The translations under genes and the position numbers were made by a program. Below, piece after piece: positions 66 through 37,341 of a stretch of 41,760 bases of DNA. The stretch is from sequence record KX231829.1. One strand, written 5' to 3'. The stretch is from Enterobacter phage Tyrion. Below the pieces are notes generated by a model. That model made no database searches. It was not told where the DNA came from and saw only the letters and a list, made by a program, of their open reading frames with translations. Position 1 is the stretch's first letter, and every line of letters begins with the position of its first letter.

Positions 66-82
66 ATTACCATAACGGTAAT
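66..82. promoter_or_regulatory. Operator palindrome ATTACC-ATAAC-GGTAAT upstream of terS
   Basis: Perfect TTACC-N5-GGTAA palindrome 20 bp upstream of the terS ATG. Confidence 0.6.
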
Positions 83-101
83 TATTACCCTGGTGGTTAC
101 A

Positions 102-695
102 ATGCCTGCTGAACCAAAAGCCCACAAACGTAAATCAACGCAGTATAAGCCCCTGACAGCGATGCAGGAGGCTTACTGCCAGTCGTATATCAAGACGCCG
201 GAGAACCAGACTCAGGCGGCGATTAACGCCGGATTCTCGCCTAATACAGCGCACGTCAAAGCCAGCGTCATGATGCGCGATGAACGCATCCAGAAACGCA
301 TTGCCGAGTTGATGGAGGAGCGCAACAAACGCATGCGCGTCAGCGCTGATTATGTGTTGCTTCGTCTGGTGGAAATCGACCAGATGGATGTGCTGGATAT
401 CCTGAACGATGACGGCACCCTGAAGCCGATCCGCCAGTGGCCGAAGATATGGCGTACCACGCTGAGCGGTTTCGACCTGTCATCGACCATCATGAACATG
501 GATGAGACATCAATCGAGACCATCCTCAAGAAAATAAAATGGCCTGACAAGGTGAAGAACCTCGAACTCATTGGTAAGCACGTCGACATCAACGCTTTCA
601 AAGAGCGCCTGGAGGTTTCAGGTACTGTCACGATTGCCGACCGCATGGCGAAAGCCCGCCGCCGCGTTAAAGAGCAGGCTGGTGGTGAAGAATGA
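102..695 (+). CDS. terS: Terminase small subunit (Terminase_2-like, HTH)
   Basis: ORF 54..695. Likely start is the ATG at 102, preceded by ggtgg and downstream of the operator. The stop overlaps the terL start (ATGA). HTH-type TerS motifs: AGFSPNTAHVKAS. Confidence 0.8.
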   Translation: MPAEPKAHKRKSTQYKPLTAMQEAYCQSYIKTPENQTQAAINAGFSPNTAHVKASVMMRDERIQKRIAELMEERNKRMRVSADYVLLRLVEIDQMDVLDILNDDGTLKPIRQWPKIWRTTLSGFDLSSTIMNMDETSIETILKKIKWPDKVKNLELIGKHVDINAFKERLEVSGTVTIADRMAKARRRVKEQAGGEE

Positions 696-2170
696 CGGAC
701 GCCGCTATGTCGCCGGAAGAGCAACTCGTCGAGGATATCGCATCATTCACGTATGACCCACTGGGCTATGCGCTGTATGCATTTCCTTGGGGCGAGGATG
801 GTACAGAACTGGCACACGCCACCGGACCACGCAAGTGGCAGGCTGATGCATTCCGCGAGATACGTGATCACCTCCAGAATCCTGCTACCCGTCACCAGCC
901 GCTGATGCTGGCCCGAGCATCCGGACACGGTATCGGTAAATCAGCGTTTATCTCGATGCTGATCAACTGGGGCATGTCCACCTGCGAGGACTGCAAGGTA
1001 GTGGTCACCGCGAACACCGACAATCAGTTGCGTACAAAAACATGGCCTGAAATCATCAAGTGGTCGAACCTTGCTATCACGAAAGAGTGGTTTACCTGCA
1101 CCGCCACAGCGATGTACAGCAACGATCCGGGACACGATAAACGCTGGCGCGCTGACGCTATTCCATGGTCTGAGCACAACACTGAAGCATTCGCCGGGCT
1201 GCACAACGAGCGCAAGCGCATCATCGTGGTATTCGACGAAGCCTCAAACATTGCCGATCTGGTGTGGGAGGTTGCCGAGGGTGCGCTGACGGACGAGGAC
1301 ACCGAAATCATCTGGGTGGCGTTCGGTAACCCGACGCGTAACACCGGGCGTTTCCGCGAGTGCTTCCGCAAATACCGGCATCGCTGGAAGTGCGCGCAGA
1401 TTGACAGCCGCACCGTTGAGGGCACCAACAAAGAGCAACTGCAAAAGTGGGTGGACGACTACGGCGAAGACAGCGACTTCGTGAAGGTGCGTGTACGCGG
1501 CATCTTCCCTGACGCGTCTGAAAACCAGTTTATTCCGTCAGGCCTGACACAGCCTGCTGTGGGTCGGGTGATTACTCCGGCACAGGTTCAGCATGCGGCT
1601 GTAGTGCTTGGCGTTGACCCTTCGCACCAGGGTAAAGACCCGGCGGTGATTTATCTTCGTCAGGGGCTGCACTGCAAGAAGCTGGGAGAGTACCCGCGCA
1701 CAACTGATGATGTCTGGTTTGCCAAGGTGATCGCCGACTTCGAAGATCAGTATCACGCTGACGCTGTGTTTATCGACTATGGATACGGGACTGGCCTGAA
1801 GTCAGTCGGTGATAACTGGGGGCGCTCATGGACGCTGATACTGTTCGGCGGCGGAACGGCAGATCCTGAGATGGGTAACAAGCGCGGGGAGATGTACAAA
1901 TCCGCCCGTGATGCGCTGAAGCTGGGCGCGCAACTTGACAGCCAGGATTTAGCCGACGAACTCAGCGCGCCTGAGTACAAAGTCAGGCTTAAGGACAGCC
2001 GGAAGATTTTGCAGGACAAGGACGAGGTGAAAGAATTGCTTGGACGGTCGCCGAACAACGCTGACGCCTATGTCCTGACCTACGCTTTCCCGGTGGTCAA
2101 GAAGCAGTACATACCAGGACAACAGAATCAGCAGGGTAAAGCCATCACAGACTACGATCCGTTTGCATAA
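692..2170 (+). CDS. terL: Terminase large subunit
   Basis: 492 aa, translationally coupled to terS. ATPase and nuclease terminase architecture (motifs GHGIGKS, VVFDEAS). Confidence 0.9.
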   Translation: MTDAAMSPEEQLVEDIASFTYDPLGYALYAFPWGEDGTELAHATGPRKWQADAFREIRDHLQNPATRHQPLMLARASGHGIGKSAFISMLINWGMSTCEDCKVVVTANTDNQLRTKTWPEIIKWSNLAITKEWFTCTATAMYSNDPGHDKRWRADAIPWSEHNTEAFAGLHNERKRIIVVFDEASNIADLVWEVAEGALTDEDTEIIWVAFGNPTRNTGRFRECFRKYRHRWKCAQIDSRTVEGTNKEQLQKWVDDYGEDSDFVKVRVRGIFPDASENQFIPSGLTQPAVGRVITPAQVQHAAVVLGVDPSHQGKDPAVIYLRQGLHCKKLGEYPRTTDDVWFAKVIADFEDQYHADAVFIDYGYGTGLKSVGDNWGRSWTLILFGGGTADPEMGNKRGEMYKSARDALKLGAQLDSQDLADELSAPEYKVRLKDSRKILQDKDEVKELLGRSPNNADAYVLTYAFPVVKKQYIPGQQNQQGKAITDYDPFA

Positions 2171-2207
2171 AAAAGGTCGCCTGAGCGACCTTCCACTTCA
2201 TTCTGCT

Positions 2208-2585
2208 TTAATCATCGGGGTAAATCAGTGGCATCCAGTGAGTTACCTTGGTAGCCCCTGAATCGATAAATGCTTGCGTCCTTTGCCAGTAGCCGCCCAT
2301 GAAAGCCAACTTGAATACATCTCCAGAATCACTAAGCGCTATAACGTCTTTCGACCACTGACCCTCTTTGCTTTCCGGAAGTCTTTCATCAACGCTTATC
2401 CAATCTATTCCGAAACCATCAGACATTTTATGTCTTGCTTCATGAATCACTTTGTCCATCCTCTTCATGGAGGCGGCAGGTAGCGGTATTTCTCGTACCG
2501 AACAGATTTCTTTGATCAGTCCACTCGCTATTACTAACTCTTCAAAAAGAGTGGCTATTAAATCGCGTTCCTCTTCACCATTCAT
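2208..2585 (-). CDS. DUF551-family protein (moron, opposite strand to late operon)
   Basis: 125 aa with C-terminal ...KVTHWMPLIYPDD typical of DUF551. A paralogous C-terminal domain is at 39918..40811. Confidence 0.65.
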   Translation of the reverse strand: MNGEEERDLIATLFEELVIASGLIKEICSVREIPLPAASMKRMDKVIHEARHKMSDGFGIDWISVDERLPESKEGQWSKDVIALSDSGDVFKLAFMGGYWQRTQAFIDSGATKVTHWMPLIYPDD

Positions 2586-2700
2586 CTACAACCTCGTCTT
2601 AGTTGCTCGTCAGGTTATCAGTGGCGGGCGGTGACGATGCCGCTTTTCGGGAGCTACCCTAGCCACTGATGAAGTTTAACACAGCCACCGGCGGGCAGGT

Positions 2701-2714
2701 TGTGACATGTCACG
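2701..2714. repeat. Palindrome tGTGACATGTCACg (copy 1)
   Basis: 12-bp perfect palindrome GTGACATGTCAC immediately after the stop of the minus-strand gene 2718..3089. Identical 14-mer to the window end/start junction. Confidence 0.8.
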
Positions 2715-2717
2715 GTA

Positions 2718-3089
2718 TTACTTGATGGCATCAAAGCCGGCGTTAATAGCTTCCGCGATATTGACCGCATTGGTTTTATCAAATTGCCCACTCTGAATAA
2801 GCGCCGCATGCAGGCATTGCAACTTCATGTTGTATAAGTGCTCACTGCGGTAATCGGCATCTGATTTTGAAAGTCCATTCTCGAGTGTTTCATGGATTCC
2901 GCCGCCCATGTCGTACCACTGCCAACACTTACCAAACTCACGATTCAGATCGCCATCATTCAGGCCATCAATCACTGACAGGTCAGATACCGCATCTTCA
3001 TGCTCAGGCTGATATCCTTCGCCGATAGCTTGTTTCAGGTATTCGATCATCTCGCCGCGTGGCTGATTAAGCTCTTCAATCTCTTTCAT
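2718..3089 (-). CDS. Acidic hypothetical protein (moron), possible DNA-mimic/anti-defence candidate
   Basis: ORF 2718..3185. Likely start is MKEIEEL at 3089 with RBS AAGGTGA. Strongly acidic (about 24 D/E versus about 10 K/R). No recognised domain. Confidence 0.5.
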   Translation of the reverse strand: MKEIEELNQPRGEMIEYLKQAIGEGYQPEHEDAVSDLSVIDGLNDGDLNREFGKCWQWYDMGGGIHETLENGLSKSDADYRSEHLYNMKLQCLHAALIQSGQFDKTNAVNIAEAINAGFDAIK

Positions 3090-3106
3090 GATTTTCACCT
3101 TAAAAA

Positions 3107-3135
3107 AATGCCCGGGGAACCGGGCGAAGTGGTAG
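3107..3135 (-). terminator. Rho-independent terminator (minus strand) directly abutting the RBS of the 2718..3089 gene
   Basis: Minus strand reads GCCCGGttccCCGGGC + AUUUUUUU, then AAGGUGAAAAUC-AUG. Confidence 0.5.
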
Positions 3136-3202
3136 CAATGGGAGTTGCCTTCCATGGCAGTCACGGGTTTACAGCACAACGTCATCGCAATGGCGCTCTG
3201 GT

Positions 3203-3245
3203 GTAAAAAGGGCGGTACCAGTTATTTCAAGGGATGGCCCTGGTA
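3203..3245 (-). terminator. Second minus-strand hairpin/terminator
   Basis: 10-bp stem GCGGTACCAG/CTGGTACCGC, followed on the minus strand by CUUUUUAC. Confidence 0.4.
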
Positions 3246-3966
3246 CCGCCAATGTTACAACTATCGTTACTGGCACTACGGTTATCACGGTCCTAAGGCG
3301 TTATTGGGTTTTCTGACTCTGTCAGATAATTTATTGCCACACTAACGCAGTGGCCTCGGGGCTTTAACGTCTTCCGAGTAGCGACATCACACGCCGTTTT
3401 TATTTCCTCTTTTAGCCCAGCTAATACTTTGCTCATTGCCGAGGATCACACGACTCTGGATTTGGTTGTGGTGGCCGGTGCTGTGATATTCCGGCATAAG
3501 GCGCTTATTCGGCGGCATCGAGCTTGCTTATTCGCTTGAGCCATCCTTGTGAGTCAGCCACGTCCCACTGCGCATCAGCCTGCGCATTCACCACAACGCT
3601 GAGAGCACTCCCATCTTTGCCAATGGGTTTCAAGAGCGGCAGGCCTACCACTTGGAATGCTCTCATCGTTGCACCCTCGTCTCTTCCGAGGTGTCACACC
3701 GTATCGCCAGGATGGTGAATCCCTTGTCCGTGCATACCGTTCACTGACTTGCACATTCCGGCTACCCGCTCGGGGATAAGGAACACCAAGAAACCCCGCC
3801 GGACCGCTGCGACACATGTGCCATATGCCGTACTTCTCACACCTGAAAGCGCGCTCCACCGTCTGGATTTAACGACCCGGCTCAAAGGTCATTCACTGAA
3901 GCGCGCTTTAAGTTGTGTTCCGGTTACGTCTCCGGAGCGGTGCCATCTCCGCCGTCTGCATTATTT

Positions 3967-4046
3967 CATTACCTCAAGGGTAATTATTGATGCAATAACT
4001 GTCAATACCCTACGCTAAATAATGCATATGTGGTTAAATTGGTAAT
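3967..4046. promoter_or_regulatory. Promoter-operator unit upstream of the 68-aa gene and portal
   Basis: Perfect palindrome ATTACC-TCAAG-GGTAAT (3967..3983), then CATATGTGGTT (4025..4035) and half-site GGTAAT (4041..4046). Same composite architecture as 7 other intergenic sites. Confidence 0.55.
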
Positions 4047-4073
4047 AATTTAATTGCGTACGGAGTCATTGTT

Positions 4074-4280: not shown

Positions 4281-4294
4281 ACGGAGTCATTGTC

Positions 4295-5965
4295 ATGGCG
4301 GAAACAACGAAAGAGCGGTTGAACAAACAGTTCGCACAGCTTGAAAGCGAGCGCCAGTCGTTCGAGCCACACTGGCGAGAGTTGAGTGATTACATCAATC
4401 CTCGTGGTTCCCGCTTCCTGACATCAGAGGCAAACCGTAACGACCGCCGAAACACGCGGATCATCGACTCAACCGGCACTATGGCGGCGCGTACTCTTGC
4501 CAGTGGCATGATGTCAGGCATCACCAGCCCTGCGCGTCCGTGGTTCCGCCTGGCGACACCTGATCCGGATATGATGGATTATGGCCCGGTCAAGTTGTGG
4601 CTGGAGACGGTACAGAACCGCATGAACGATATGTTCAACAAGTCGAATCTGTACCAGTCACTGCCTCAGCTTTACGGCAGTCTTGGCACATACAGCACCG
4701 GCGCAATGGCGGTACTGGATGACGAAGAAGACATTATCCGCACGATGCCTTTTCCGATCGGCAGTTACTACCTGGCTAACTCCCCGCGCGGAAGCGTTGA
4801 TACCTGTTTCCGTAAGTTCTCCATGACTGTGCGCCAGCTTGTGCAGGAATTTGGCCTGGACAACGTCAGCGAATCCGTGAAGGGCATGTGGGAAAGCGGC
4901 ACGTATGAGAAGTGGGTTGAAGTGATGCACTCGGTGTATCCGAACATCAACCGCGATACGGCGAAGCTGGACAGCAAGAACAAGCCGTATAAATCCGTTT
5001 ATTACGAGGTCGGCGGCGATAACGATAAGTTGCTGCGCGAATCCGGCTTCGATGAATTCCCGATCATGGCGCCACGCTGGGAAGTGAACGGTGAAGATGT
5101 CTATGGCTCATCGTGTCCTGGCATGCTGGCGCTTGGTCCGGTTAAAGCGCTGCAACTTCTCCAGAAACGCAAATCTCAGCTGATTGATAAAGCCACTAAT
5201 CCGCCGATGGTTGGGCCTACTTCTCTCAAGAATCAGCGCGTTTCACTCCTCCCTGGTGATATCACCTACATCGACCAGGTGACCGGTCAGGACGGTTTTA
5301 AACCCGCATACCTGGTAACTCCCAGCACTGGCGATTTAATAACCGACATTCAGGACACGCGCCAGACCATCAACAGCGCCTACTTCGTCGATCTGTTCAT
5401 GATGCTTCAGAACATCAATACCCGCTCAATGCCGGTGGAAGCGGTGATCGAGATGAAGGAAGAAAAGCTCCTGATGCTGGGGCCGGTACTGGAACGCCTG
5501 AACGACGAATGCCTGAACCCACTGATTGACCGTGCATTCTCGATGATGGTGCGTAAGAACATGCTGCCACCGCCGCCGGACGTGATGGAAGGTATGCCTC
5601 TGAAAGTGGAATACATCTCCGTCATGGCTCAGGCGCAGAAGTCTATCGGTCTGTCCAGTCTGGCATCAACTGTCAACTTCATCGGACAACTTGCGCAGGC
5701 CAAACCTGAAGCACTCGACAAGCTCAACGTTGACCAGGCGATCGACGCATTTGCTGATATGTCCGGCGTATCGCCGACTGTCATAGTGCCGCAGGACCAG
5801 GTTGAACAGACGCGTCAGGACCGTGCGCAGCAGCAACAGCAACAGCAGGCAATGGCAATGGCTCAGATGGCAGCGCAGGGAGCCAAGACTCTCAGTGAGA
5901 CGCAGATGAAAGATCCCAGCGCGCTCTCAGCAATGGCTCAGGCAGCAGGCAGGCAACAGCAATGA
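4295..5965 (+). CDS. Portal protein
   Basis: 556 aa, positioned after terL. Gln-rich C-terminus. Size matches epsilon15 gp4. Confidence 0.85.
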   Translation: MAETTKERLNKQFAQLESERQSFEPHWRELSDYINPRGSRFLTSEANRNDRRNTRIIDSTGTMAARTLASGMMSGITSPARPWFRLATPDPDMMDYGPVKLWLETVQNRMNDMFNKSNLYQSLPQLYGSLGTYSTGAMAVLDDEEDIIRTMPFPIGSYYLANSPRGSVDTCFRKFSMTVRQLVQEFGLDNVSESVKGMWESGTYEKWVEVMHSVYPNINRDTAKLDSKNKPYKSVYYEVGGDNDKLLRESGFDEFPIMAPRWEVNGEDVYGSSCPGMLALGPVKALQLLQKRKSQLIDKATNPPMVGPTSLKNQRVSLLPGDITYIDQVTGQDGFKPAYLVTPSTGDLITDIQDTRQTINSAYFVDLFMMLQNINTRSMPVEAVIEMKEEKLLMLGPVLERLNDECLNPLIDRAFSMMVRKNMLPPPPDVMEGMPLKVEYISVMAQAQKSIGLSSLASTVNFIGQLAQAKPEALDKLNVDQAIDAFADMSGVSPTVIVPQDQVEQTRQDRAQQQQQQQAMAMAQMAAQGAKTLSETQMKDPSALSAMAQAAGRQQQ

Positions 5966-6953: not shown

Positions 6954-6967
6954 GAGAGGAAATAACC

Positions 6968-17576: not shown

Positions 17577-20051
17577 ATGAGACAGGAATGTATTCAGGCC
17601 GTGCAACAGGCCGCACAGCGCACTCTTACAGCCCGAGAAATACAGAATATCGAAGACCGCATTTACCGCAATATGCGATCTATCGCCCGTGACGATCCGA
17701 TGTCATGGCGTCAACTTAACGACGCTGAACGCCTGCGCCGCGCCGGGCAACTGGCGGCTGAAGAGTTGCAGCGAGAAGCGGCACTGAAAAAACGCCGTGT
17801 CGCGCTTACCATCGCAGCGCGTCAGCGCCTTGACAACTTCATTAACAGTTATCAGGGTGCTGACGGAAAGCTAGGCGCACTCAACCGCACGATCGCCTTC
17901 AGCGCCGACGGTAAATCAAACTTTCTGTCTGTTGAGTCTCGAACGAAAGCGACGCGTGATTACGCATTAAGCCAGTTGCAGGAAGCATTTGAAGCCGTTG
18001 ACCCTCGTTTCTTTGGCCTGTTTGAAGATGAAGCCGGCGTGCGCGATCTGGTGTTTGAGATGCGCGGGCAGAATACTGGCAATGCGAAGGCCAGAAAAGG
18101 GGCGAAAGCCTGGGGGGAGGTTACTGAACTGCTGCGCCGCCGCTTCAATGATGCCGGTGGCGATATCGGCTACCTGGAAAACTGGGGTATACCTCAGCAC
18201 CACTCGATGGAAAAGGTTGGTGCTGTATCGAAAGATAAATGGGTAAGCGATGTGATCGGCAAACTCGATCGCAAATATTACATCCGCGCCGACGGCCAGT
18301 TGATGAATGATACTGAGTTGTCATCTTTTCTCGGTGAAGCCTATAACACGATTGCCACAGGCGGCCTTAATAAACTCACTGATACCGGTATGCGTATTTC
18401 CGGTGCGCGGGCAAACCGTGGCAACGCGTCACGCCAGATCCACTTTAAAGACGCTGATTCATACCTTCAGTACCAGCAGATGTATGGCGACAGGTCACTC
18501 TGGGAAATCATGGTAGGGCACCTGGAAGGTATCAGCAAAGACATTGCGCTGGTGGAGACATACGGGCCAAACCCGGATCACGTGTTCCGATCTCTGCTTG
18601 ACCAGACGAAATCAGAGACAGCCACGGCTAACCCGCAGAACACAGGCAAAATAGAACGGCAGGCGAACAGCACAGAGAACCTGTACAACTTCATTTCTGG
18701 AAAGACGCAACCTGTAGCGAATCCGCACATCGCTCGCTGGTCTGACAATATCCGCAACTGGATGGTTGCCAGCCGTCTCGGTTCCGCGCTTCTGTCATCA
18801 TTCTCTGATCTCGGAACCATGTACCTGTCTGCGAAGGTTACCAACCTGCCAATGAACCAGTTATTTCGCAACCAGTTAGAGGCAATGAACCCCGCTAACC
18901 GCACGGAACTGGCGCGGGCACGCCGGGCTGGTCTGGCAATGGAATCACTACTTGGCAGCGTTAACCGCTGGGCGATGGATAATATGGGGCCATCTGTATC
19001 CCGCTGGGCGGCAACCGCTGTAATGCGCGCCAGCGGCCTGACGGCATGGTCAGATGCTCACAAGCGCGCCTATGGTGTCACCATGATGGGTAGCCTGGGG
19101 GAAGTTGTCACCATAACGCCTGACCTGAAAAGCCTGTCTAATGACGATTTTCGTATACTGAAAAGTAAGGGGATCACCGATACCGACTGGAGTGTGTGGA
19201 AGCTGGCGCAACAGGAGGACTGGGGGAAAGGAAACGATACGATGCTGACGCCGGAAAGCATCATGCGCATTCCTGATGCTGCTGTAGAGCATCTCGGATC
19301 GCCGGAGCGCGTGAAGTTCGAAGCGATGCGTAAGCTACTCGGAGCGGTTACCGAAGAAGTTGACATGGCTGTGATAACTCCGGGTGCGCGTGAGCAGATG
19401 GTTACTGGTTCAGGCATCCAGCGCGGGACATGGAAGGGAGAACTAACCCGTAGCGTATTCCTGTTTAAGTCTTTCCCGATCTCAGTTGTCATGCGTCACT
19501 GGTCGCGTGCAATGGGAATGCCGTCTGCCGGTGGGCGTGCGGCATACATCGCGACGTTTATCGCCAGTACAACCATTCTTGGCGCGCTGTCGCAGCAGTT
19601 AAACGATATGGCATCAGGCAGGAACCCGCGTGATATGACCGGTGATGATGCCGCAAAATTCTGGCTTGGTGCATTACTGAAAGGTGGTGGTCTTGGCCTG
19701 TATGGCGATTTCCTTCTGTCTGATCACACTAGGTACGGAAGTGGTGCGCTGGCGTCGATGCTTGGCCCGGTGGCTGGTCTTGTTGATGATGTCGTTAAGA
19801 TTGCCCAGGGTATCCCGCTTAATGCTGTAGAAGGAAAATACGAACAAACTGGCGGTGATCTGGTGAAACTTGGCAAAGGACTGACGCCTGGCGCGAATAT
19901 CTGGTATCTCAAAGCCGCCATAGATCACATGATCTTCAACCAGATGCAGGAGTATTTTTCTCCTGGCTATCTGCGTAAGATGGAACAACGTTCGAAGAAA
20001 GAATTTAACCAGACATACTGGTGGCGGCCGCAGGACACGCTACCGCAATAG
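17577..20051 (+). CDS. Internal core/ejection protein (large)
   Basis: 824 aa, the last gene of the injection-protein block. Confidence 0.65.
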   Translation: MRQECIQAVQQAAQRTLTAREIQNIEDRIYRNMRSIARDDPMSWRQLNDAERLRRAGQLAAEELQREAALKKRRVALTIAARQRLDNFINSYQGADGKLGALNRTIAFSADGKSNFLSVESRTKATRDYALSQLQEAFEAVDPRFFGLFEDEAGVRDLVFEMRGQNTGNAKARKGAKAWGEVTELLRRRFNDAGGDIGYLENWGIPQHHSMEKVGAVSKDKWVSDVIGKLDRKYYIRADGQLMNDTELSSFLGEAYNTIATGGLNKLTDTGMRISGARANRGNASRQIHFKDADSYLQYQQMYGDRSLWEIMVGHLEGISKDIALVETYGPNPDHVFRSLLDQTKSETATANPQNTGKIERQANSTENLYNFISGKTQPVANPHIARWSDNIRNWMVASRLGSALLSSFSDLGTMYLSAKVTNLPMNQLFRNQLEAMNPANRTELARARRAGLAMESLLGSVNRWAMDNMGPSVSRWAATAVMRASGLTAWSDAHKRAYGVTMMGSLGEVVTITPDLKSLSNDDFRILKSKGITDTDWSVWKLAQQEDWGKGNDTMLTPESIMRIPDAAVEHLGSPERVKFEAMRKLLGAVTEEVDMAVITPGAREQMVTGSGIQRGTWKGELTRSVFLFKSFPISVVMRHWSRAMGMPSAGGRAAYIATFIASTTILGALSQQLNDMASGRNPRDMTGDDAAKFWLGALLKGGGLGLYGDFLLSDHTRYGSGALASMLGPVAGLVDDVVKIAQGIPLNAVEGKYEQTGGDLVKLGKGLTPGANIWYLKAAIDHMIFNQMQEYFSPGYLRKMEQRSKKEFNQTYWWRPQDTLPQ

Positions 20052-20396: not shown

Positions 20397-20420
20397 CTTT
20401 CGCGGCCTTATTCTTATCAG
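20397..20420. terminator. Bidirectional Rho-independent terminator
   Basis: GGCCGC-tttc-GCGGCC followed by ttattctt on the plus strand. U-rich on the minus strand after the adjacent palindrome. Confidence 0.55.
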
Positions 20421-21130
20421 AACCCACCAGCCTGGCTGTTGATGTACTGCGCGTGCGTCTGGATGTCGCGCAGGCATTTACTGGCACCTACGATGTAGCT
20501 GATCATCGTGGTGAACTCCGCCGCCGCGCCGGATACGTCGTGGCCGTCGTCCTGCATCTGGTTCAGCAGGTTCATCAGCAGTGAGCGATCCGCCAGCCCA
20601 ACAACACCTTCCGGCGAGTGAATCATGTCGCGGTAGCCGGGTTTGAGTGGGGCGCTGTAGTTCTTCTGTTCAATCTGCATGGCCTGCATAACTGCTGATG
20701 CTGTGGCATTGGCAACCTGATCAGCAACCATCTTAATGCGGTCTTCTTGCGGGAGCGTATTTTTGATGTAACTACCGGTGCGGCGGATCTGCGGCAGCAC
20801 TTCGCCAGTTACCCATTTACGGAAACGGTAGGGAATAGTCCCAGGTGTTACTGCATCGCGGCAGCGCAGGATCAGAGTATAGAGGCCGGATTCGTTTATG
20901 ACATTAACGGTCTGACTACCTTTTACGGTGTAAGTTGAACTTACACCCTTCTCATCATCATCTAATGCTTTCAACGACATGCGGGAGTTAGTCAACCCAA
21001 GAGCTTTGCAAACGTCTGATGCAGCAAACCATGGATTACCATCAATGTTGAACATGCGAACAGGTGTGGATGATTCGAACTTAAATACTGCGTCTGGAGA
21101 TGGTTTTCTTTGAGTTGTCATAGTGATCAC
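20417..21130 (-). CDS. ant: Bro-N domain antirepressor-like protein (Ant)
   Basis: 237 aa. N-terminal Bro-N signature FNIDGNPWFAASDVCKALGL...LDDDEK. The C-terminal approximately 70 aa is paralogous to the product of 21439..21699. Confidence 0.75.
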   Translation of the reverse strand: MITMTTQRKPSPDAVFKFESSTPVRMFNIDGNPWFAASDVCKALGLTNSRMSLKALDDDEKGVSSTYTVKGSQTVNVINESGLYTLILRCRDAVTPGTIPYRFRKWVTGEVLPQIRRTGSYIKNTLPQEDRIKMVADQVANATASAVMQAMQIEQKNYSAPLKPGYRDMIHSPEGVVGLADRSLLMNLLNQMQDDGHDVSGAAAEFTTMISYIVGASKCLRDIQTHAQYINSQAGGF

Positions 21131-21392
21131 CTTTGTAGTTCCGGTTAATCACCACCGCTGAGACCAATCAGATGGTGGTGAACTGTGCAGAGTTGGTCTT
21201 ACCGGCTACAAAGGACCCGGCGCACCGTGAGGTGCCCCCACACAGCCCACCATAGAATATGGGTGCTATGCTTCACGCATAAAAAAACCGCTCGCGCGGT
21301 AATGCGCCTCTGTAGTAATCCGGGAGACCAATCCCGGCACTGGATTTTGCCAGTGCCTGATCACTATGGCACAAGAATTATGCATTGTAAAT

Positions 21393-21448
21393 TTACCTGT
21401 GAGGTAATAATAAACGGCTTCACAGGTAATTACAAACCTTATGTGGTT
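21393..21448. promoter_or_regulatory. Operator/promoter unit upstream of ant
   Basis: TTACC-TGTGA-GGTAAT (21393..21408), half-site AGGTAAT (21424..21430), ACCTTATGTGGTT (21436..21448). Confidence 0.5.
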
Positions 21449-21699
21449 TGCCGTCGTAGTTGCTCTACGCAATAATCCAGGTGCGTCTGCAGATCCTTCA
21501 TCGATAACTGTGAACTGGTGACATAGTTCACCAGCGCAGTCAGTTCTGCCAGCGGTCCATCAACGTTAAATCCGTCTTTGTCCAACTGGCGCAGCAATTT
21601 CATAAGGTGTGAGTCCTCCACCAGGGATATGACGCCTCCCGGCGTGTGTACTCTTTCAGCAAATCCATCTTCCAGCGGGTGGTGATACTGCCGTTGCAT
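21439..21699 (-). CDS. Small antirepressor-like protein (stand-alone Ant C-terminal domain paralog), SOS-box associated
   Basis: ORF 21439..21717 (TTG). Likely ATG at 21699 with RBS GGAG. Clear similarity to the Ant C-terminus (HTPGGVISLVEDSHLMKLL.. versus HSPEGVVGLADRSLLMNLL..). Confidence 0.6.
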   Translation of the reverse strand: MQRQYHHPLEDGFAERVHTPGGVISLVEDSHLMKLLRQLDKDGFNVDGPLAELTALVNYVTSSQLSMKDLQTHLDYCVEQLRRQTT

Positions 21700-21719: not shown

Positions 21720-21739
21720 ACTGTATGCTTATACAGTAG
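21720..21739. promoter_or_regulatory. LexA (SOS) box aCTGTATGCTTATACAGta
   Basis: CTGT-N8-ACAG with AT-rich spacer, 18/20 match to TACTGTATATATATACAGTA. Lies about 20 bp upstream of the ATG of the small antirepressor-like gene. Confidence 0.65.
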
Positions 21740-21774: not shown

Positions 21775-21841
21775 ATTACCTTATCGGTAATAAATGTGTT
21801 GAATGTTATTTATTCGATACATATACGGTTATTCAGGTAAT
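21775..21841. promoter_or_regulatory. Operator/promoter unit between small ant-like gene and tailspike
   Basis: Perfect ATTACC-TTATC-GGTAAT (21775..21791), then GGTAATAAATGTGTT, ACATATACGGTT (21819..21830) and AGGTAAT (21835..21841). Confidence 0.55.
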
Positions 21842-21896
21842 AGAATGGATGGGACTGCATGCGCGATGGGCGCACAAGCTATCCGGAGATAATGAC

Positions 21897-26407: not shown

Positions 26408-26465
26408 TCACCTTATGGGTAATTTTGATAGGAGTAATCTCAGGTAATTATAACCATATATGGTT
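26408..26465. promoter_or_regulatory. Divergent promoter/operator region (oac leftward, lysis rightward)
   Basis: TCACC-TTATG-GGTAAT (26408..26423). Sigma70-like TTGATA (26425..26430) - 17 bp - TTATAA rightward. AGGTAAT (26442..26448), ACCATATATGGTT (26453..26465). On the minus strand CCATATATGGT is directly followed by a perfect TATAAT pointing toward oac. Confidence 0.55.
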
Positions 26466-26518
26466 TATTGTGTATGATGGACTCACCAACTAAGGGGGTT
26501 CGTTATGCACAGTAAACG

Positions 26519-26932
26519 GTGGTCATTATGTCAGCCGGGCTAACCAGTGAGTCTTTAAATCAGTGGCTTAGTATGGGTTCGCTCGCTGCGGTAATCGCAG
26601 GAGTTCCGCCAGAAGTGGCGCTCGGTGCTTTGGCTGGTGCGGTAATTTTTGTTACCTCGGCTGTCGAATACCCGATCCGCCGCCGGGTTCTTCTGTCGAT
26701 GCTCAGCTTTCTCTGCGGCCTTCTCTTCTACAAACCCACAGCATCCATCCTTATCGGCGTAGCCAGCCTGATCCCTACCATCACGCAGGATTCTTTCGAG
26801 AAAGGGATCGTATTCTCTGCCGGCGCATTCGTGTCAGCTATCGTCGCAGTTCGTATTGGCATCTGGCTCTATCACCGTTCCGATAATCCACGCGAGTTAA
26901 TCCCGGGGAGAAAAGACGATGACAACTCATGA
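26519..26932 (+). CDS. Holin-like membrane protein
   Basis: 137 aa, multiple TM segments, first gene of the lysis cassette. Confidence 0.5.
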   Translation: MVIMSAGLTSESLNQWLSMGSLAAVIAGVPPEVALGALAGAVIFVTSAVEYPIRRRVLLSMLSFLCGLLFYKPTASILIGVASLIPTITQDSFEKGIVFSAGAFVSAIVAVRIGIWLYHRSDNPRELIPGRKDDDNS

Positions 26933-28340: not shown

Positions 28341-28624
28341 CGGTATATAAAACGGTACGGTGAAAATAAGTTATGAGAAAGATGTTATCACTCAATTGGT
28401 TATGTTTGTCGTAAATAATTGAGTGGGAATGATTTACAGCTAACTCATAGCTAATCATTTCTATTCATTTAATAAAATAACCCTCTGTTTTTACGGAGGG
28501 TTTTTGTTTATATCTACTCATAACTATTCACTCTACACCACATTTTTCGACGGTACACGTGACGGTATTACCCTAAAGGTATACTCTCATACCGACAGAA
28601 ACATGGATGCAAAACGGGTGAAAA
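28325..28624. other. Candidate attP region with integrase arm-type repeats
   Basis: AT-rich non-coding region next to int with at least 5 copies of (G)ACGGTA(T/C) (28336, 28349, 28548, 28560, inverted at 28590). Also an inverted repeat cactcaatt...aattgagtg. Confidence 0.45.
28483..28509 (+). terminator. Rho-independent terminator ending the lysis operon
   Basis: ccctctg-ttttta-cggaggg followed by tttttgttt. Confidence 0.6.
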
Positions 28625-30947: not shown

Positions 30948-31119
30948 ATCACACCAGCCTTAATTGGACGAACCTTAAGCGATTCATTCAATTTCTCAGC
31001 AACTCGTTGTGCTGCTATGGGGTTGTTAATAATCAACTTTGCAGGAGTTAACCAGCCTCTGTGTTTAACAGAGTAAATAAGAGTTACCTTACCGACGGTG
31101 ATATTGTCGTGAGGATTAG
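30943..31119 (-). CDS. Hypothetical 58-aa protein (not in ORF track)
   Basis: Minus-strand ATG at 31119 overlapping the upstream stop (TATGACTAA). Its own stop overlaps the ATG of the 75-aa gene (ATGA), so it is translationally coupled in the operon. Confidence 0.4.
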
Positions 31120-31505
31120 TCATAGATCACCCCACGGCTGAGTATTCCACTGTAATCACCACAGCGCAGGCCATTACTTTTCGTGATGCACTGGTCACGA
31201 CGAACGGCGATCTTGTGCCGCTCAACTTCACCCTTCGCTGCATCCATACACAGGAGCCATAGACGAGCAGCAACGCGAAAGTGACCTTTTTTCTCTCTTG
31301 CGATAGCGCGCTTCTCGATCTCCATCGCCGCCGGTGTCACCGCGATTACTTTTGAGACTTCGCTTTTTGACACATGGTCAAGATGGTACTTCTGCAATTT
31401 CGTTAACTTTGGCTTATTCATTTGATCCAGCCTTCTCTGAAAATAACCGCCAGCAGGTAAAGCCAGGCGGAAATTGAGGTCAGGTATAAGTACCATCCTG
31501 ACCAC
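31116..31505 (-). CDS. Hypothetical protein (first gene of leftward methyltransferase operon)
   Basis: 129 aa ORF. An alternative start is MNKPK at 31421. Confidence 0.5.
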   Translation of the reverse strand: MVRMVLIPDLNFRLALPAGGYFQRRLDQMNKPKLTKLQKYHLDHVSKSEVSKVIAVTPAAMEIEKRAIAREKKGHFRVAARLWLLCMDAAKGEVERHKIAVRRDQCITKSNGLRCGDYSGILSRGVIYD

Positions 31506-31530
31506 TTATTCCAGTGCCTGATCAGCGCTG

Positions 31531-31779: not shown

Positions 31780-31828
31780 AAAAACCTCTCTTGGTTGCAG
31801 TGCGGCGCGCGTGGCGCCGCGGTGGTGG

Positions 31829-33722: not shown

Positions 33723-34060
33723 GCTGCTGTCCTCGCGCTGTCAATTTTGTCCGCCATATCCATCCTGGCGATGACGCCAGTCAATTCACGTTTGAACGAC
33801 GACATCAGTTCTTCGTACTCGCAGCTTTCTTTTGCCGCTTCCAGAATTTCACGGCGAACGCCAGCACGAAGAAGCGAACGCTCGAACGTCTCATCCATGT
33901 CGGCGCCGCTGACTGCATCAATCAGTTCAACGTGGCGGTCGTACAGTTCTGATGACATCTGGTATTCGTTGCTGAACATGACCGCGATATTGTTCAGATT
34001 GTTAATCTGTTGTGTGTTCACTTGCTCACCCCCATATCCCGTTATCGTTGGCAACTTCAT
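33719..34060 (-). CDS. Hypothetical early protein (leftward operon)
   Basis: 113 aa, acidic, no recognised domain. Confidence 0.5.
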   Translation of the reverse strand: MKLPTITGYGGEQVNTQQINNLNNIAVMFSNEYQMSSELYDRHVELIDAVSGADMDETFERSLLRAGVRREILEAAKESCEYEELMSSFKRELTGVIARMDMADKIDSARTAA

Positions 34061-34176
34061 GGGCTACCTTGTTGGTAAACGCCCATTTGATGCCTTCCTG
34101 CAGCGTGCGAAACTTCCAGCTCATCAGCCCGCAAGCTGTAACGCAGTACCAACCGTTAATGATTTTCCACTGCATG

Positions 34177-34283
34177 ATTTATTACCTCGGTTTGTTACCG
34201 TTGAGGTAATAATTATCCATATATGGTTTGCAGTCAATAGATATGAGTGTAAAAAATTACCTGTGGGGTAATTGTCAGGTAAT
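34177..34283. promoter_or_regulatory. OL-like operator/promoter cluster
   Basis: TTACCTCGG..CCGTTGAGGTAAT, then GGTAAT-aattat-CCATATATGG (34205..34226). Perfect ATTACC-TGTGG-GGTAAT (34256..34272), AGGTAAT (34277..34283). Leftward sigma70-like TTGACT-17-AATTAT with CCATATATGG in the spacer. Confidence 0.55.
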
Positions 34284-34294
34284 CTTAAAGGCAA

Positions 34295-34317
34295 TAAAAA
34301 AGCCGCTCATTGGCGGC
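34295..34317 (-). terminator. Terminator after repressor gene
   Basis: GCCGC-tcattg-GCGGC. On the minus strand it is followed by UUUUUUAUU. Confidence 0.55.
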
Positions 34318-34339
34318 TTAGTTATTGATTATTTGAATA

Positions 34340-34924
34340 TTATTCTGTTGTTTTTTTATTCTGACTGATAACGAATTCTATGTAGCTTTCTATCTTCTTT
34401 TTTTCTACGTCAGGTAACAATCCGTAACTTGGTCGGTCATATCTGATAGCTTCCGGATCATGAGGATGAATCAGCAATTCATAACCATGTCGACCGAACG
34501 CGGAGGCGATAGATTCGAGAGTTGAGATTGATACACTGACTTCGTTGTTCAGCATTCTGCTGACAGTGTTCTGAGAAATTCCGCTGGCGCGCTCGATCTT
34601 ACCTTGTGATGTCAGGTTATCGCTTTCTCTCATCCAGCGTTCAAGGTTATGGGCAGCAATGATACCAATATCAGTTGGTCCTACAGGTACAAAGCTATCA
34701 AGAGTCAGAGATCTGTCTATGTCCAGCCAGTTACGCGGTTTGTTTGCTGCTGCCTCAATCTTACGTGCAACCTGATCACCGATTATTTTCTTTCCAAGAA
34801 CCCAACGATTAACCAGGTTAGCCTGCGTGTTCATCCTTTCTGCAAGACGCGTCTGCACGCCGTTAAATTCGCGGTCTATTAGATCCTTGAGATTTTGTCT
34901 GCGTACGTCCTGGATACTTTTCAT
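34340..34924 (-). CDS. Prophage repressor, tandem HTH_XRE domains, no S24 peptidase domain
   Basis: 194 aa with two HTH regions (about 1-65 and about 105-160). No Ser/Lys autocleavage module. Divergent from the cro-like gene. Confidence 0.75.
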   Translation of the reverse strand: MKSIQDVRRQNLKDLIDREFNGVQTRLAERMNTQANLVNRWVLGKKIIGDQVARKIEAAANKPRNWLDIDRSLTLDSFVPVGPTDIGIIAAHNLERWMRESDNLTSQGKIERASGISQNTVSRMLNNEVSVSISTLESIASAFGRHGYELLIHPHDPEAIRYDRPSYGLLPDVEKKKIESYIEFVISQNKKTTE

Positions 34925-34956
34925 GCTCTTGAAAATAAGCTCTTAAGTGAATGAGT

Positions 34957-35041
34957 AGGTAATTCAATTAAAAGCGATATTACCCCACAGGTAAATGCAC
35001 CCCACAGGTAACTGAACTTGATTTTTGTTACCTAATCGGTG
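34957..35041. promoter_or_regulatory. OR-like operator cluster (PRM/PR)
   Basis: AGGTAAT (34957), ATTACC-CCACA-GGTAA (34978..34993), GCACC-CCACA-GGTAA (34996..35010), TTACC-TAATC-GGTGA (35027..35041) overlapping a rightward TTGATT (35017..35022)-17-GAGTAT promoter. Confidence 0.6.
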
Positions 35042-35078
35042 AGTATTTATTATCTGACATAAATATCAGGCAATAGCT

Positions 35079-35309
35079 ATGAGCGAGAACACGCAATTCG
35101 ATTTCAAAAAGCACTGGCTTGCACTTACTCCGGATGAGCGTGAAGCCTTCGCAGAAGAGGCGGGAACGACCAGCCATTATATCCAGACGCACCTTACCAG
35201 CAAACGTAAAATGCCAGGTAAGACACTGATGAACGGGCTGTTTAGGGCTGCAAAATCCCGTCAGTGGGTACGCACAAAACCCGAACTGGCATACTTCTTC
35301 TACTCCTGA
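35079..35309 (+). CDS. Cro/CII-like small transcriptional regulator
   Basis: 76 aa, first rightward gene divergent from the repressor. HTH-like LTPDEREAFAEEAGTTSHYIQ. Confidence 0.5.
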   Translation: MSENTQFDFKKHWLALTPDEREAFAEEAGTTSHYIQTHLTSKRKMPGKTLMNGLFRAAKSRQWVRTKPELAYFFYS

Positions 35310-35373
35310 TTTCCCCTACCGATCCCCACAAGGCCGCCTTCTGGCGGTCTTTTCATATCTATTCGTACCCAAA

Positions 35374-35396
35374 AGGTAATTATTATCCATATATGG
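35374..35396. promoter_or_regulatory. Promoter/operator unit upstream of 35461 operon
   Basis: AGGTAAT-tat-TATCCATATATGGTT. The same 25-bp arrangement occurs at 26442 and 34205. Confidence 0.5.
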
Positions 35397-35460
35397 TTGA
35401 TCTTTTTTCTTCTCTGATTAAAAATTGTCGTAATCCCAACACTAATACTCAGGGTTAAGC

Positions 35461-35670
35461 ATGAAAATCATTACGCGTATGGATGCCGCAAAAAGCGGAC
35501 TGAAGCGTTATTACACTGGAAAACCATGTAAACACGGGCATGACAGTGAACGATGGGTATACAACGGTCATTGCGTCAAGTGCACGATGGAATCAAATCG
35601 GCGTATCAAGGCGGAAATAAAACGGATTATGGATGAGGCTTCCAGGGGCGATGCTATGGAGGTGATCTGA
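35461..35670 (+). CDS. Small Cys/His zinc-finger protein
   Basis: 69 aa with CKHGH...C..C. Confidence 0.5.
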   Translation: MKIITRMDAAKSGLKRYYTGKPCKHGHDSERWVYNGHCVKCTMESNRRIKAEIKRIMDEASRGDAMEVI

Positions 35671-36437
35671 TGGCTCGCATTCGAACGATAAAGCCGGAGT
35701 TCTGGACAGATGAAGACATGGCAGAACTATCAGAGCCAGCATGCCTTCTTGCTATTGGCCTTCTGAATTACGCCGATGATGAAGGATACTTCAATGCCAA
35801 CCCGAAACTGATAAAAGCTGCAGTTTTCCCAATCAGAGATCCGTCCGTTCCTATTCCGGTACTAATACGGGAGCTTTCCAACTGTGGTTATTTGTCCATG
35901 TTTTCAACCCAGGACGGCAAGCATTTTGGTGCAATAACAAATTTCCTTAAACATCAGGTAGTAAACAAGCCAAAGGAAAGCAAAATCAAATACTTACCTC
36001 TTATACCGTATGAGTACGGTACTGATACAGGATTAGTACCTGTAGGAATGGATCAGGGATCAGGGATCAGGGAAAGTAAAACCCCTCTCTCTGCGCGCGA
36101 AGAAATTCAAATTCCTCCTGTTGTTGTTCCAGGTATCGGAGAACCGATCGGCAAATTCACCATGCATGAAAACTGGCAACCATCTGAAGATTTTGTCATG
36201 CGCGCCAGAATGTGGGGCTATGCATTACCTGCTGACGGGTACAAGAAATCAGAACTGATTGAATTCATCACTTACTGGATGGCAGAAGGCAATGTGATGC
36301 AACACGTGCAGTGGGAACAGAAGTTTGCCAGGCTGCTGATGAACAGGAAAAAAAGAGCGGCAGGAAAGCGCGGTGACGACTCTGACGATGACGTACCGCA
36401 CTGGAACAGTCCAGAGGCGTGGGAGGATTTCTTGTGA
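35670..36437 (+). CDS. Replication initiation protein (lambda O-like role)
   Basis: 255 aa immediately upstream of, and overlapping, the P-like gene. N-terminal DNA-binding-like region. Confidence 0.6.
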   Translation: MARIRTIKPEFWTDEDMAELSEPACLLAIGLLNYADDEGYFNANPKLIKAAVFPIRDPSVPIPVLIRELSNCGYLSMFSTQDGKHFGAITNFLKHQVVNKPKESKIKYLPLIPYEYGTDTGLVPVGMDQGSGIRESKTPLSAREEIQIPPVVVPGIGEPIGKFTMHENWQPSEDFVMRARMWGYALPADGYKKSELIEFITYWMAEGNVMQHVQWEQKFARLLMNRKKRAAGKRGDDSDDDVPHWNSPEAWEDFL

Positions 36438-37219
36438 ACAACGTATTTAACGCAATCCAGAACAGAGACGGTGCAGCGCTTTCTCGCATGACCGGATCAG
36501 ACAGAGAGCACGAAGGGAATGACAACGTGGTGAACATCACCGCAGAGCGCCTTGTCGATGCCCTGTTTAAACAACTCAAACAGTTATTCCCGGCGGCAGA
36601 GCAAACAAACCTGAAAACGGCAGCGCAGGAAGTATCAGCAAAGCAGCAGTGGATCGCCGCATTCGCCGAAGGTGGTATCCGTACCCGTGAGCAGGTCTCT
36701 GCCGGAATGCGTCATGCCAGAGCCAGTGAATCACCGTTCTGGCCTTCACCTGGTCAATTCATCAAGTGGTGCAAAGACAGCAAGATGGTGCTTGGCGTCA
36801 GCATCGATGATGTGATGGGGGAGTTTCACCGGTACGCCAAAGAAAAAAGTCTCCAGCCTGGCGGACCTGAGAGATTCCCGTGGCGCCACCCGGTCATGTA
36901 CTGGATTGTGTGTGATACCCGGCGCGCTATGTACCAGCGGCAGCTGAGTGAGGCTGAAGTCGAGAAGCATGCGCGTAAGCTGCTTGATGAGTGGGCGCAG
37001 AAGGTTGCAGCAGGGCAGCAGATACCGGATCCAGTTCTCAGCATACAGGCGAAACCAGAGCCGATGAGTACGCCGCCCGATAGCTCAGGAAGCGCCTACC
37101 ACCCACCAGGGCGAAGTTTTGGCTGCATGCCTAACTCAGCGACACTTGGAGGGATCACTCCGGCGATGTGGCTTATGGAGGAATACAGGCGAGGTAAGGC
37201 GGCAGGACTCATCAAATAG
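36419..37219 (+). CDS. Lambda P-like replication protein (helicase loader)
   Basis: The central region aligns with lambda P: QQWIAAFAEGGIRTREQVSAGMRHARASESPFWPSPGQFIKWC versus lambda RRQWVLAFRENGITTMEQVNAGMRVARRQNRPFLPSPGQFVAWC. Confidence 0.8.
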   Translation: MGGFLVNNVFNAIQNRDGAALSRMTGSDREHEGNDNVVNITAERLVDALFKQLKQLFPAAEQTNLKTAAQEVSAKQQWIAAFAEGGIRTREQVSAGMRHARASESPFWPSPGQFIKWCKDSKMVLGVSIDDVMGEFHRYAKEKSLQPGGPERFPWRHPVMYWIVCDTRRAMYQRQLSEAEVEKHARKLLDEWAQKVAAGQQIPDPVLSIQAKPEPMSTPPDSSGSAYHPPGRSFGCMPNSATLGGITPAMWLMEEYRRGKAAGLIK

Positions 37220-37263
37220 CAAAGTAACACCGGCGCAGCAGCGCATTTTTTTACGCCCACACA

Positions 37264-37341
37264 ATTACCCAGTGGGTAATAAAATGTGTTCACAAGTATT
37301 GATTTCGAACCGTATATGGATTTTAATTACCTAAGAGGTAA
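37264..37341. promoter_or_regulatory. Promoter with flanking operators upstream of RuvC-like operon
   Basis: Perfect ATTACC-CAGTG-GGTAAT (37264..37280). TTGATT (37299..37304) - 17 bp spacer containing CCGTATATGG (37310..37319) - TTTAAT (37322..37327). Perfect TTACC-TAAGA-GGTAA (37327..37341) at the predicted start site. Confidence 0.6.

Follow-up and report, generated by a model that had tools for sequence, protein, structure and literature searches.

Analysis of the Enterobacter phage Tyrion sequence (KX231829.1; the window, meaning the whole stretch of 41,760 nt) uncovered a palindrome, TTACC-N5-GGTAA, repeated between genes throughout the genome, whose copies are probably the operators of Rep, a tetrameric helix-turn-helix (HTH) repressor of the type carried by phages epsilon15 and SPC32H; we put the probability of this reading at roughly 0.8. 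An earlier reading by a model that saw only the letters (hereafter the original prediction) had proposed a genome-wide operator network under one phage repressor, the product of open reading frame (ORF) 34340..34924. Judged by a full-length match of that product to SPC32H Rep, by the annotation of epsilon15 and by the conserved positions of the sites, this is the best reading of the dispersed operators. The network is real but not new, as the epsilon15 annotation precedes it: such a network is already annotated for epsilon15, and the window adds an example to a known system and does not represent a new kind of regulation. Two features go beyond public annotation and can be tested directly: the fusion of operators to -10 elements, with a strict 62-bp distal partner at the promoters PL and P_ruvC, and a second palindrome, the B box.

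An exact search of the whole window recovered nine perfect copies (starting at 67, 3969, 21393, 21776, 34195, 34257, 34980, 37265 and 37327), compared with an expectation of 0.07 in dinucleotide-shuffled sequence. The enrichment claimed earlier therefore stands, although eight copies had been counted, with the PL-proximal operator at 34195 overlooked and the sites placed 0-2 nt from where they lie, and although the chance expectation had been given as about 0.04 copies, which is also far below the number observed. Allowing one mismatch raises the count to 15 versus 0.54 expected, the additional copies starting at 85, 26408, 28568, 34064, 35028 and 35365. The imperfect copies listed earlier are present at 26408, at 34997 (given as 34996), where the copy carries two mismatches (GCACC...GGTAA), and at 35028 (given as 35027). 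Five of the AGGTAAT half-sites in that list were found as well (21424, 21835, 26442, 34277 and 34957), while the one placed at 35374 is the right half of the one-mismatch site 35365. Intergenic DNA, delimited by a gene map combining the ORF list with the annotation of relatives, makes up 7.5% of the window and holds 9/9 perfect sites (P ~8e-11), in agreement with the claim that the copies are intergenic; a first-order Markov background of intergenic DNA alone predicts 0.006 copies versus the nine observed. Intergenic positions are also occupied by 5/6 one-mismatch sites, the exception being 34064, within a 49-aa gp37-like ORF. The extended consensus of 218 distinct sites, drawn from all the loci retrieved, reads A-TTACC-T-n-W-n-A-GGTAA-T, with the A/T flank at 71% and the central W at 88%, and the flanks are symmetric in a symmetrised logo.

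The window is a complete-looking podophage genome of the epsilon15/phiV10 type (genus Uetakevirus) with a mosaic early region; it is ~81% identical to phiV10 DNA over 80% of the structural half and has the same gene order. In the epsilon15 records (NC_004775.2 / AY150271.2), seven features labelled 'protein_bind, repressor, lysogeny' each read ATTACC-N5-GGTAAT and lie at terS, at gp3/portal, in the gap between gp19 and the tail fibre gene, between gp37 and the repressor gene (three, at PL) and at the RuvC-like gene. Every one of these regions has a counterpart site in the window. Epsilon15 contains 11 perfect copies in all, and the four that are not annotated fall at OR (two), in the lysis region and proximal to RuvC. 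In a comparison of seven phages (the window with epsilon15, phiV10, SPC32H, BUCT554, TL-2011b and 65FD), the motif recurs at orthologous intergenic regions in all six annotated relatives, which bears out the conservation of site positions that had been proposed as a check among epsilon15/phiV10 relatives. Imperfect forms recur as well: TCACC at oac/lysis, GTACC downstream of the gp39 terminator, and variants with GGTTA or GGTGA at terS and PR. Phylogenetic footprints, with invariant half-sites and variable 5-bp spacers, emerge when the regions of Ant/tailspike, PL, gp3, lysis and OR are aligned.

Rep matches SPC32H Rep end to end (PDB 5D50_A, residues 1-191, E=7e-44, phmmer against PDB); 5D4Z is the C-terminal part of the same protein. 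Pfam assigned only HTH families (YdaS/Cro-like at the N-terminus, HTH_3 in the centre) and found no Peptidase_S24 autocleavage domain in Rep. Aligned with its six relatives, Rep is 45-78% identical, and the HTH helix NLVNRW is invariant in all seven phages, an invariance that matches that of the half-site. As described in PMC9986798, the N-terminal domain binds DNA, the central HTH_3-like domain dimerises, and both tetramerisation and antirepressor binding fall to a p53-like C-terminal domain of a kind linked to DNA looping; the label 'tandem-HTH' given to the protein earlier is thus misleading, the second domain being a dimerisation domain. The SPC32H Rep tetramer binds palindromic DNA through HTH pairs drawn from different dimers, and one tetramer is enough for repression (PMC9638917). 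In the window, pairs of Rep N-terminal domains would each bind one 15-17 bp palindrome (A-TTACC-N5-GGTAA-T). Overexpression of the repressor of phage ZX5 lowered holin and endolysin transcripts by 99.97-99.99% (PMC9782041).

The association between Rep and the palindrome extends well beyond these seven phages. Eighty IMG/VR loci with a Rep homologue contain 495 perfect sites in 1.19 Mb, or 0.42 sites per kb. When the loci of Rep homologues with 41-58% identity (in prophages of Samsonia erythrinae and E. coli and on a metagenome contig of 1.25 kb) were scanned for 5+5 palindromes without reference to the motif, TTACC-N5-GGTAA was the most frequent. Its copies flank rep and precede terS in these distant loci, and operators are kept beside homologues of only 41-45% identity. 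As separate observations, the window Rep is 97% identical to a Citrobacter amalonaticus protein, and one IMG/VR contig has an immunity region 95% identical to that of the window while its remainder differs.

The position of the sites relative to putative promoters suggests how Rep would repress (Table 1). At P_terS, PL, P_ruvC and the promoter of the isrK/C4/Bro-N unit, the operator appears to begin at the final T of a -10-like hexamer and to be centred at ~+1. The terS promoter has an extended -10 (TGgTACTAT, 59-67), and TGnTA(C/G)TAT stands directly 5' of the site in all seven phages; the second terS site, at 85, occupies the same place in epsilon15, phiV10, TL-2011b, BUCT554 and 65FD. At PL, on the minus strand, a -35 TTGACT (34237..34232) and a -10 AATTAT (34214..34209) are separated by 17 bp, and at P_ruvC the same spacing separates TTGATT (37299-37304) from TTTAAT (37322-37327), both -10 hexamers running into TACC. 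The earlier placement of the 37327 copy at a predicted +1 is borne out, in that this operator spans +1 of the putative P_ruvC; its right half also serves as the Shine-Dalgarno sequence of RuvC. Rep bound over +1 at these four promoters would occlude RNA polymerase.

The operator pairs at PL and P_ruvC are spaced exactly 62 bp centre to centre and are mirrored with the direction of transcription. Among the 80 IMG/VR loci, the same 62-bp spacing occurs in 147/150 adjacent pairs closer than 120 bp. Since 62 bp is about six helical turns, both operators of a pair lie on one face of the DNA, and from this, together with a tetramer that has a looping-type domain, we infer that one Rep tetramer would hold both operators and clamp PL or P_ruvC. 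As the mechanism of repression by the Rep tetramer "has not been extensively characterized" (PMC9986798), the 62-bp pairing and the -10 fusion offer a concrete, testable model.

Table 1 Rep, its candidate operators and other features of the window, with putative promoters read from the sequence
Feature	Position	Strand	Remarks
Rep, probable master repressor	34340..34924	-	PDB 5D50_A homologue; N-terminal HTH, middle HTH_3-like and C-terminal tetramerisation domains
Operator, perfect, TTACCATAACGGTAA	67..81		centred at ~+1 of terS extended -10 promoter; epsilon15 site 12..27 annotated
Operator, 1 mismatch, TTACCCTGGTGGTTA	85..99		18 bp from 67 site; overlaps terS ribosome-binding site
Operator, perfect	3969..3983		90 bp upstream of gp3-like/portal operon; epsilon15 2931..2947 annotated
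Operator, perfect	21393..21407		centred on +1 of putative leftward P1 (TTGTAA, 17 bp, TATTAT); conserved in phiV10 (20497) and TL-2011b (34385)
Operator, perfect	21776..21790		Ant/tailspike divergent region; epsilon15 19895..19911 annotated
Operator, 1 mismatch (TCACC...GGTAA)	26408..26422		oac/lysis divergent region
PL-proximal operator, perfect	34195..34209		begins at last base of putative -10, centred at ~+1
PL-distal operator, perfect	34257..34271		exactly 62 bp from proximal; abuts invariant A6 tract
OR operator, perfect	34980..34994		over -35/spacer of putative PRM (rep promoter)
OR operator, 2 mismatches, GCACCCCACAGGTAA	34997..35011		17 bp from 34980; perfect in epsilon15-type phages (33358)
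OR operator, 1 mismatch	35028..35042		between invariant -35 TTGATT (35018-35023) and PR -10 region
Operator-like site, 1 mismatch (GTACC...GGTAA)	35365..35379		just past gp39-like terminator, upstream of 35461 replication operon; GTACC kept in phiV10 (33112)
P_ruvC distal operator, perfect	37265..37279		epsilon15 35906..35922 annotated repressor-binding
P_ruvC proximal operator, perfect	37327..37341		62 bp from distal; begins at last base of putative -10
Operator-like candidate site, 1 mismatch, TTACCCTAAAGGTAT	28568..28582		attP region, 42 bp upstream of int
B box variant, ATCCATATATGGTT	34215..34228		PL spacer; 19.5 bp from proximal and 42.5 bp from distal operator
Other B box variants	4022-4035, 21435-21448, 21817-21830, 35385-35398, 37308-37321		beside operators
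gp39-like small HTH protein	35079..35309	+	first PR gene; candidate Cro-like lytic repressor; phrog_35 transcriptional repressor
SPC32H-type small antirepressor Ant, 86 aa	21439..21699	-	PDB 5D50 chain E, E=7e-48, ~85% identity; phrog_450
LexA box, CTGTATGCTTATACAG	21721..21736		overlaps putative P_ant -10 (TACTGT); 22 bp upstream of Ant
isrK-like small RNA; C4 antisense RNA	21281..21356; 21171..21257	-	Rfam gathering-level matches, 79.9 and 73.3 bits; upstream of Bro-N gene 20417..21130

Several points weigh against assigning the sites to Rep, or against parts of the proposed mechanism. Covariation between the Rep helix and the operator was sought in the distant homologues and none was seen, as homologues with the variant helices TLISRW and SLVSQW have an unchanged half-site; since the half-site does not vary even where the helix does, the evidence here is co-occurrence and not covariation, and co-occurrence is, as far as the sequences go, the sole comparative evidence tying Rep to the site. 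The repressor-site annotation of epsilon15 may itself be bioinformatic only, and the fall in ZX5 transcripts could be indirect. The bridging of two operators would require strong DNA bending, because the middle dimerisation-domain pairs of the tetramer lie ~100 Å apart (PMC9986798) compared with ~210 Å for 62 bp of straight DNA. Scans with the sigma70 consensus gave no promoter-like excess over shuffles, so that the predicted promoters are assigned by conservation across the phages and by manual reading. Finally, at gp3, tailspike and lysis the full operator is single and lies ~85, 70 and 70 bp upstream of the respective inferred starts, which is not the classical position for occlusion at the gp3, tailspike and holin/lysis promoters.

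This last point bears on the original prediction that the repressor directly controls the portal, tailspike and lysis promoters, which is not evident from the position of the sites; they may instead serve leftward promoters. In the strongest of the alternatives, which we hold to have a substantial but below-even chance, the sites at 3969, 21776 and 26408 would be Rep operators for the leftward moron/int-alpA/DUF551 unit, P_ant and P_oac, with portal, tailspike and lysis mainly under another factor acting at a second palindrome, the B box, and with the effect of Rep on late genes indirect. Several details fit. A minus-strand -35, TTGACA (4006..4001), is invariant in the seven phages beside half-sites that are invariant and a spacer that varies, and it points to a putative leftward promoter whose -10/+1 would be covered by operator 3969. 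The 21776 site is nearer the putative start of P_ant (~-57) than that of tailspike (~-70). The lysis promoter of TL-2011b keeps its B box and -10 TATGAT while the operator is absent, and the tailspike promoter of the Samsonia prophage keeps ATATGGTT-N7-GGTAAT with no full operator in that spacer. B boxes, moreover, sit at ~-27 to -33, where late promoters have no -35 hexamer. Other details point the other way. P_terS, also a late promoter, does carry operators over +1, and invariant lone GGTAAT half-sites abut the putative -10s of gp3 and tailspike, the gp3 one standing in 62-bp register from the full site, so that a tetramer may bind a full site and a half-site cooperatively. No factor that binds the B box is known, and the assignment of the sites to divergent promoters itself depends on predicted promoters. 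Under the Rep-operator reading, then, the single sites at gp3/portal, Ant/tailspike and oac/lysis may act on leftward promoters or cooperate with GGTAAT half-sites. The conserved late -10-like elements in question are TTTAAT at 4049-4054 (gp3), TAGAAT at 21841-21846 (tailspike) and TATGAT at 26473-26478 (lysis). The TCACC form of the 26408 site is kept in 5/6 relatives, epsilon15 having a perfect copy instead (24704).

The region between rep and the gp39-like gene has the layout of a lambda-type switch. The earlier notion of three clustered sites in an OR1-3-like arrangement is upheld by copies at 34980, 34997 and 35028, whose spacings of 17 and 31 bp are shared with epsilon15 (sites 33341, 33358 and 33388, spaced 17 and 30-31 bp), as is that of an imperfect copy in the PR spacer, the 35028 site falling between the putative -35 and -10 of PR. 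Together the three sites would cover PR and PRM and give a lambda-like switch with autoregulation. It is rather unlikely, in our view, that the palindrome is bound mainly or additionally by a different phage protein, such as the Cro-like homologue of gp39, as part of a lytic-phase network. The gp39-like protein is a conserved small HTH protein (72-84% identity across the seven phages; phrog_35) encoded by the first PR gene, Cro and CI share operators in lambda-type switches according to textbooks, and the PR/PRM region shows no further conserved palindrome. Set against this, the motif accompanies Rep homologues down to 41% identity, the epsilon15 annotators gave the palindrome to the repressor, and a profile comparison of the gp39-like protein with the Rep N-terminal domain was not significant; operator sharing with gp39 would in any case supplement Rep as the binding protein and not replace it.

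Very improbable is the proposal that the sites are stoperators or roadblocks that halt elongating RNA polymerase and not promoter operators. The sites at 67/85, before terS, and at 35365, before the replication operon, do lie directly downstream of intrinsic terminators, where read-through could be blocked. Palindromic sites have no orientation, however, 9/9 perfect sites are intergenic with none inside an operon, four promoters have a site fused to their -10 hexamer, and in all seven phages a conserved extended -10 belonging to terS itself immediately precedes the site; the description 'stoperator-like' given earlier accordingly fails for sites that are palindromic and at promoters and not oriented within operons. 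That the palindromes are back-to-back promoter elements (GGTAAT as a -10-like and TTACC as a -35-like element) and not protein-binding sites is scarcely credible: in several cases a lone GGTAAT half-site falls on an extended -10-like element of the TGnTAAT type or on a Shine-Dalgarno sequence, but ten invariant positions around a freely varying 5-bp spacer, at a density of 0.42 sites per kb in the 80 loci, the exact 62-bp pairing, sites away from promoter elements such as the distal operators, and nine copies against 0.006 expected in an AT-matched intergenic background all contradict it.

The Rep operators can be set beside several known systems. The window has every feature of the epsilon15/SPC32H group that can be assessed by sequence, that is, a Rep homologue, the palindrome positions, Ant with a LexA box, and synteny. 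It resembles epsilon15 in having the same palindrome at corresponding places, the same synteny and the 62-bp pairing at PL and RuvC; it differs in that its Rep is just 45% identical to gp38, in having two PL operators compared with three, in operator spacers that are less A/T-rich, and in an extra site before the isrK/C4/Bro-N unit, which epsilon15 lacks. With SPC32H it shares full-length Rep and Ant homologues, a LexA box at the ant promoter, the lack of an S24 domain and the places of the operators, whereas Rep is ~45% identical compared with ~85% for Ant, and the window adds the C4/isrK/Bro-N module.

The original prediction had also placed the network closer to P1 C1 or mycobacteriophage L5 than to the lambda OL/OR paradigm, and this held in part: the operators are dispersed as in P1, but the sites are palindromic and unlike stoperators, and a lambda-like OL/OR core is kept. 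In both P1 and the window, one repressor would serve many operators over several operons (up to 15 sites in 10 intergenic regions of the window), and both have a C4 antisense RNA and a pathway of antirepression. The operators of P1 are 17-mers that lack symmetry and are bound by C1 as a monomer, whereas the window sites are palindromic and, by homology, would be bound by HTH pairs of a tetramer. L5 likewise has many copies of one repressor site genome-wide, but the stoperators of L5 gp71 are asymmetric 13-mers that lie in one orientation within transcribed regions and act on elongation, whereas the perfect sites of the window are symmetric and exclusively intergenic, with several fused to promoter elements. 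Lambda OL/OR is matched by three operators in the gap that separates the divergent rep and cro-like genes and by several operators at PL; in contrast to lambda, Rep is without a RecA-dependent autocleavage domain, some operators are placed beyond the immunity region, and fixed 62-bp pairs flank single promoters. Among plasmid regulators, the Rco tetramer of pLS20 bridges two operator regions ~60-75 bp apart, as is proposed here for Rep, although Rco recognises direct repeats and needs several tetramers; KorA/KorB of IncP plasmids likewise reuse a palindromic operator at many promoters but are plasmid regulators unrelated in sequence to Rep (both systems in PMC9986798).

The B box, AACCATATATGGTT, is a second palindrome that differs from the operator in its spacer (ACC-N6-GGT compared with ACC-N5-GGT) and has one perfect copy, at 26452-26465. 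Its 12-mer gives 15 strand-hits with up to two mismatches versus 2.8 expected, and six copies lie in intergenic DNA versus 0.28 expected. Measured centre to centre, operator and B box are 52.5 bp apart at gp3, 40.5 bp at tailspike, 43.5 bp at lysis and 41.5 bp at the Bro-N unit, and at PL and P_ruvC the order is operator, 42.5 bp, B box, 19.5 bp, operator. These offsets are identical in all relatives carrying the orthologous site, and of 157 B boxes in the 80 IMG/VR loci, 105 have an operator no more than 80 bp away, with discrete offsets. The box is found at ~-27 to -33 of late promoters that have no recognisable -35 and fills the spacer at PL and P_ruvC; it is unannotated in epsilon15. A role as a fixed promoter element was rejected, as the position of the box relative to putative starts varies (~-20, -27 to -33, -40 and -85). 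To our knowledge, the box matches no site of the host factors DnaA, HipB, MqsA, Fis, CRP or IHF.

Operators and B boxes occur together at the promoters of PL, P_ruvC, replication, portal, tailspike, lysis and the small RNA, in what could be a two-part code, with fixed, helically phased offsets (~42 and 19.5 bp, and 52.5 bp at gp3). We suggest tentatively, and with the odds against it, that a B-box regulator activates the late promoters without a -35 from ~-30 and damps early ones from within their spacers, which would place an early-to-late switch on top of the Rep network; the box may in this way explain the timing of late promoters. Candidate binders could include a gp49-like zinc-finger protein, the Cro-like gp39, a PerC-like activator (31116..31505), or Rep in a second binding mode. 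The gp49-like gene (41405-41758) is the last before the terminator and terS, a position that recalls lambda Q and makes it a candidate late regulator; it encodes a highly conserved protein of 112-117 aa (phrog_536, transcriptional regulator) with a basic N-terminus, a Cys-rich C-terminus (CxxC...CxC...C) and no Pfam match. The B box, the 62-bp pairs and the -10/operator fusion were not found in the public annotation or papers examined, and a full-text literature search with the motif sequence returned nothing relevant; judged from the sequences, they would refine a known system, and neither the box nor the 62-bp/-10 geometry would overturn the current view of temperate-phage regulation.

Induction in the window is likely to follow SPC32H. 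The 86-aa Ant is divergent from the tailspike gene and has a LexA box at its promoter, as is characteristic of the family; this box is the only perfect CTGT-N8-ACAG in the window and is invariant in the seven phages. Kim and Ryu reportedly found in 2013 that LexA represses ant and that Ant, not RecA-mediated cleavage, inactivates Rep. Since Rep has no S24 peptidase domain, induction would not proceed through its cleavage; the SOS response would lift LexA from the box at P_ant, Ant would be made, and the Rep tetramer would be dismantled as in SPC32H. The gene called ant in the original prediction (20417..21130) is a Bro-N gene and not the characterised antirepressor of the family, which is ORF 21439..21699. 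The phage can thus be described as carrying an SPC32H-type switch with a non-cleavable repressor and a LexA-controlled small antirepressor, and its sites can be labelled as probable Rep operators.

Upstream of the Bro-N gene, operator 21393 abuts the -35 of a second putative promoter, P2 (TTTACA/CATAGT), which starts the isrK-like RNA; the match to isrK, an Hfq-binding small RNA, has its 5' end at the predicted start and is followed by a terminator. Because the isrK-like and C4 RNAs lie between the operator and Bro-N, the operator appears to serve a unit similar to P1 immI or to Gifsy-1/IsrK. A second antirepression module (C4/isrK/Bro-N) is thus present alongside the LexA-controlled small Ant.

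Further observations concern individual sites and their surroundings. The mismatch of the 28568 site in the attP region (GGTAT) is the same in all seven phages, and its epsilon15 counterpart is annotated as integrase-binding (26873..26882). At OR, the direct repeat CCCCACAGGTAA occurs twice, 17 bp apart (34984 and 35001; region 34984-35012). An 11-bp insertion found only in the window, TCAGGTAATCT (34272-34283), creates the extra half-site 34277 beside the PL-distal operator. A GGTAA half or a lone AGGTAA stands at the Shine-Dalgarno position of RuvC (AGAGGTAAATCATG, 37327-37347), of the listed tailspike ORF start (AGGTAATAGAATG, 21835-21851) and of the gp37-like gene (GAGGTAATAAATCATG, 34176-34194, minus strand), so that some half-sites may be ribosome-binding sites and not Rep sites.

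The region leftward of 4006 contains small minus-strand ORFs (3505-3885), orf155, int-alpA RNA and DUF551. The int-alpA RNA is an Rfam match of 44 bits at 2605-2669 (-), upstream of the DUF551 gene (2208..2585) in the leftward accessory region between terL and gp3; a tRNA scan found no tRNA in the window, whereas SPC32H carries a tRNA-Arg between terL and gp3. In the Samsonia erythrinae prophage (Rep 45% identical; locus 230-440 and 5280-5380), the LexA box at ant is kept, and at terS an operator precedes the extended -10 (TGGTATGAT), after which come two GATTACC half-sites in direct orientation.

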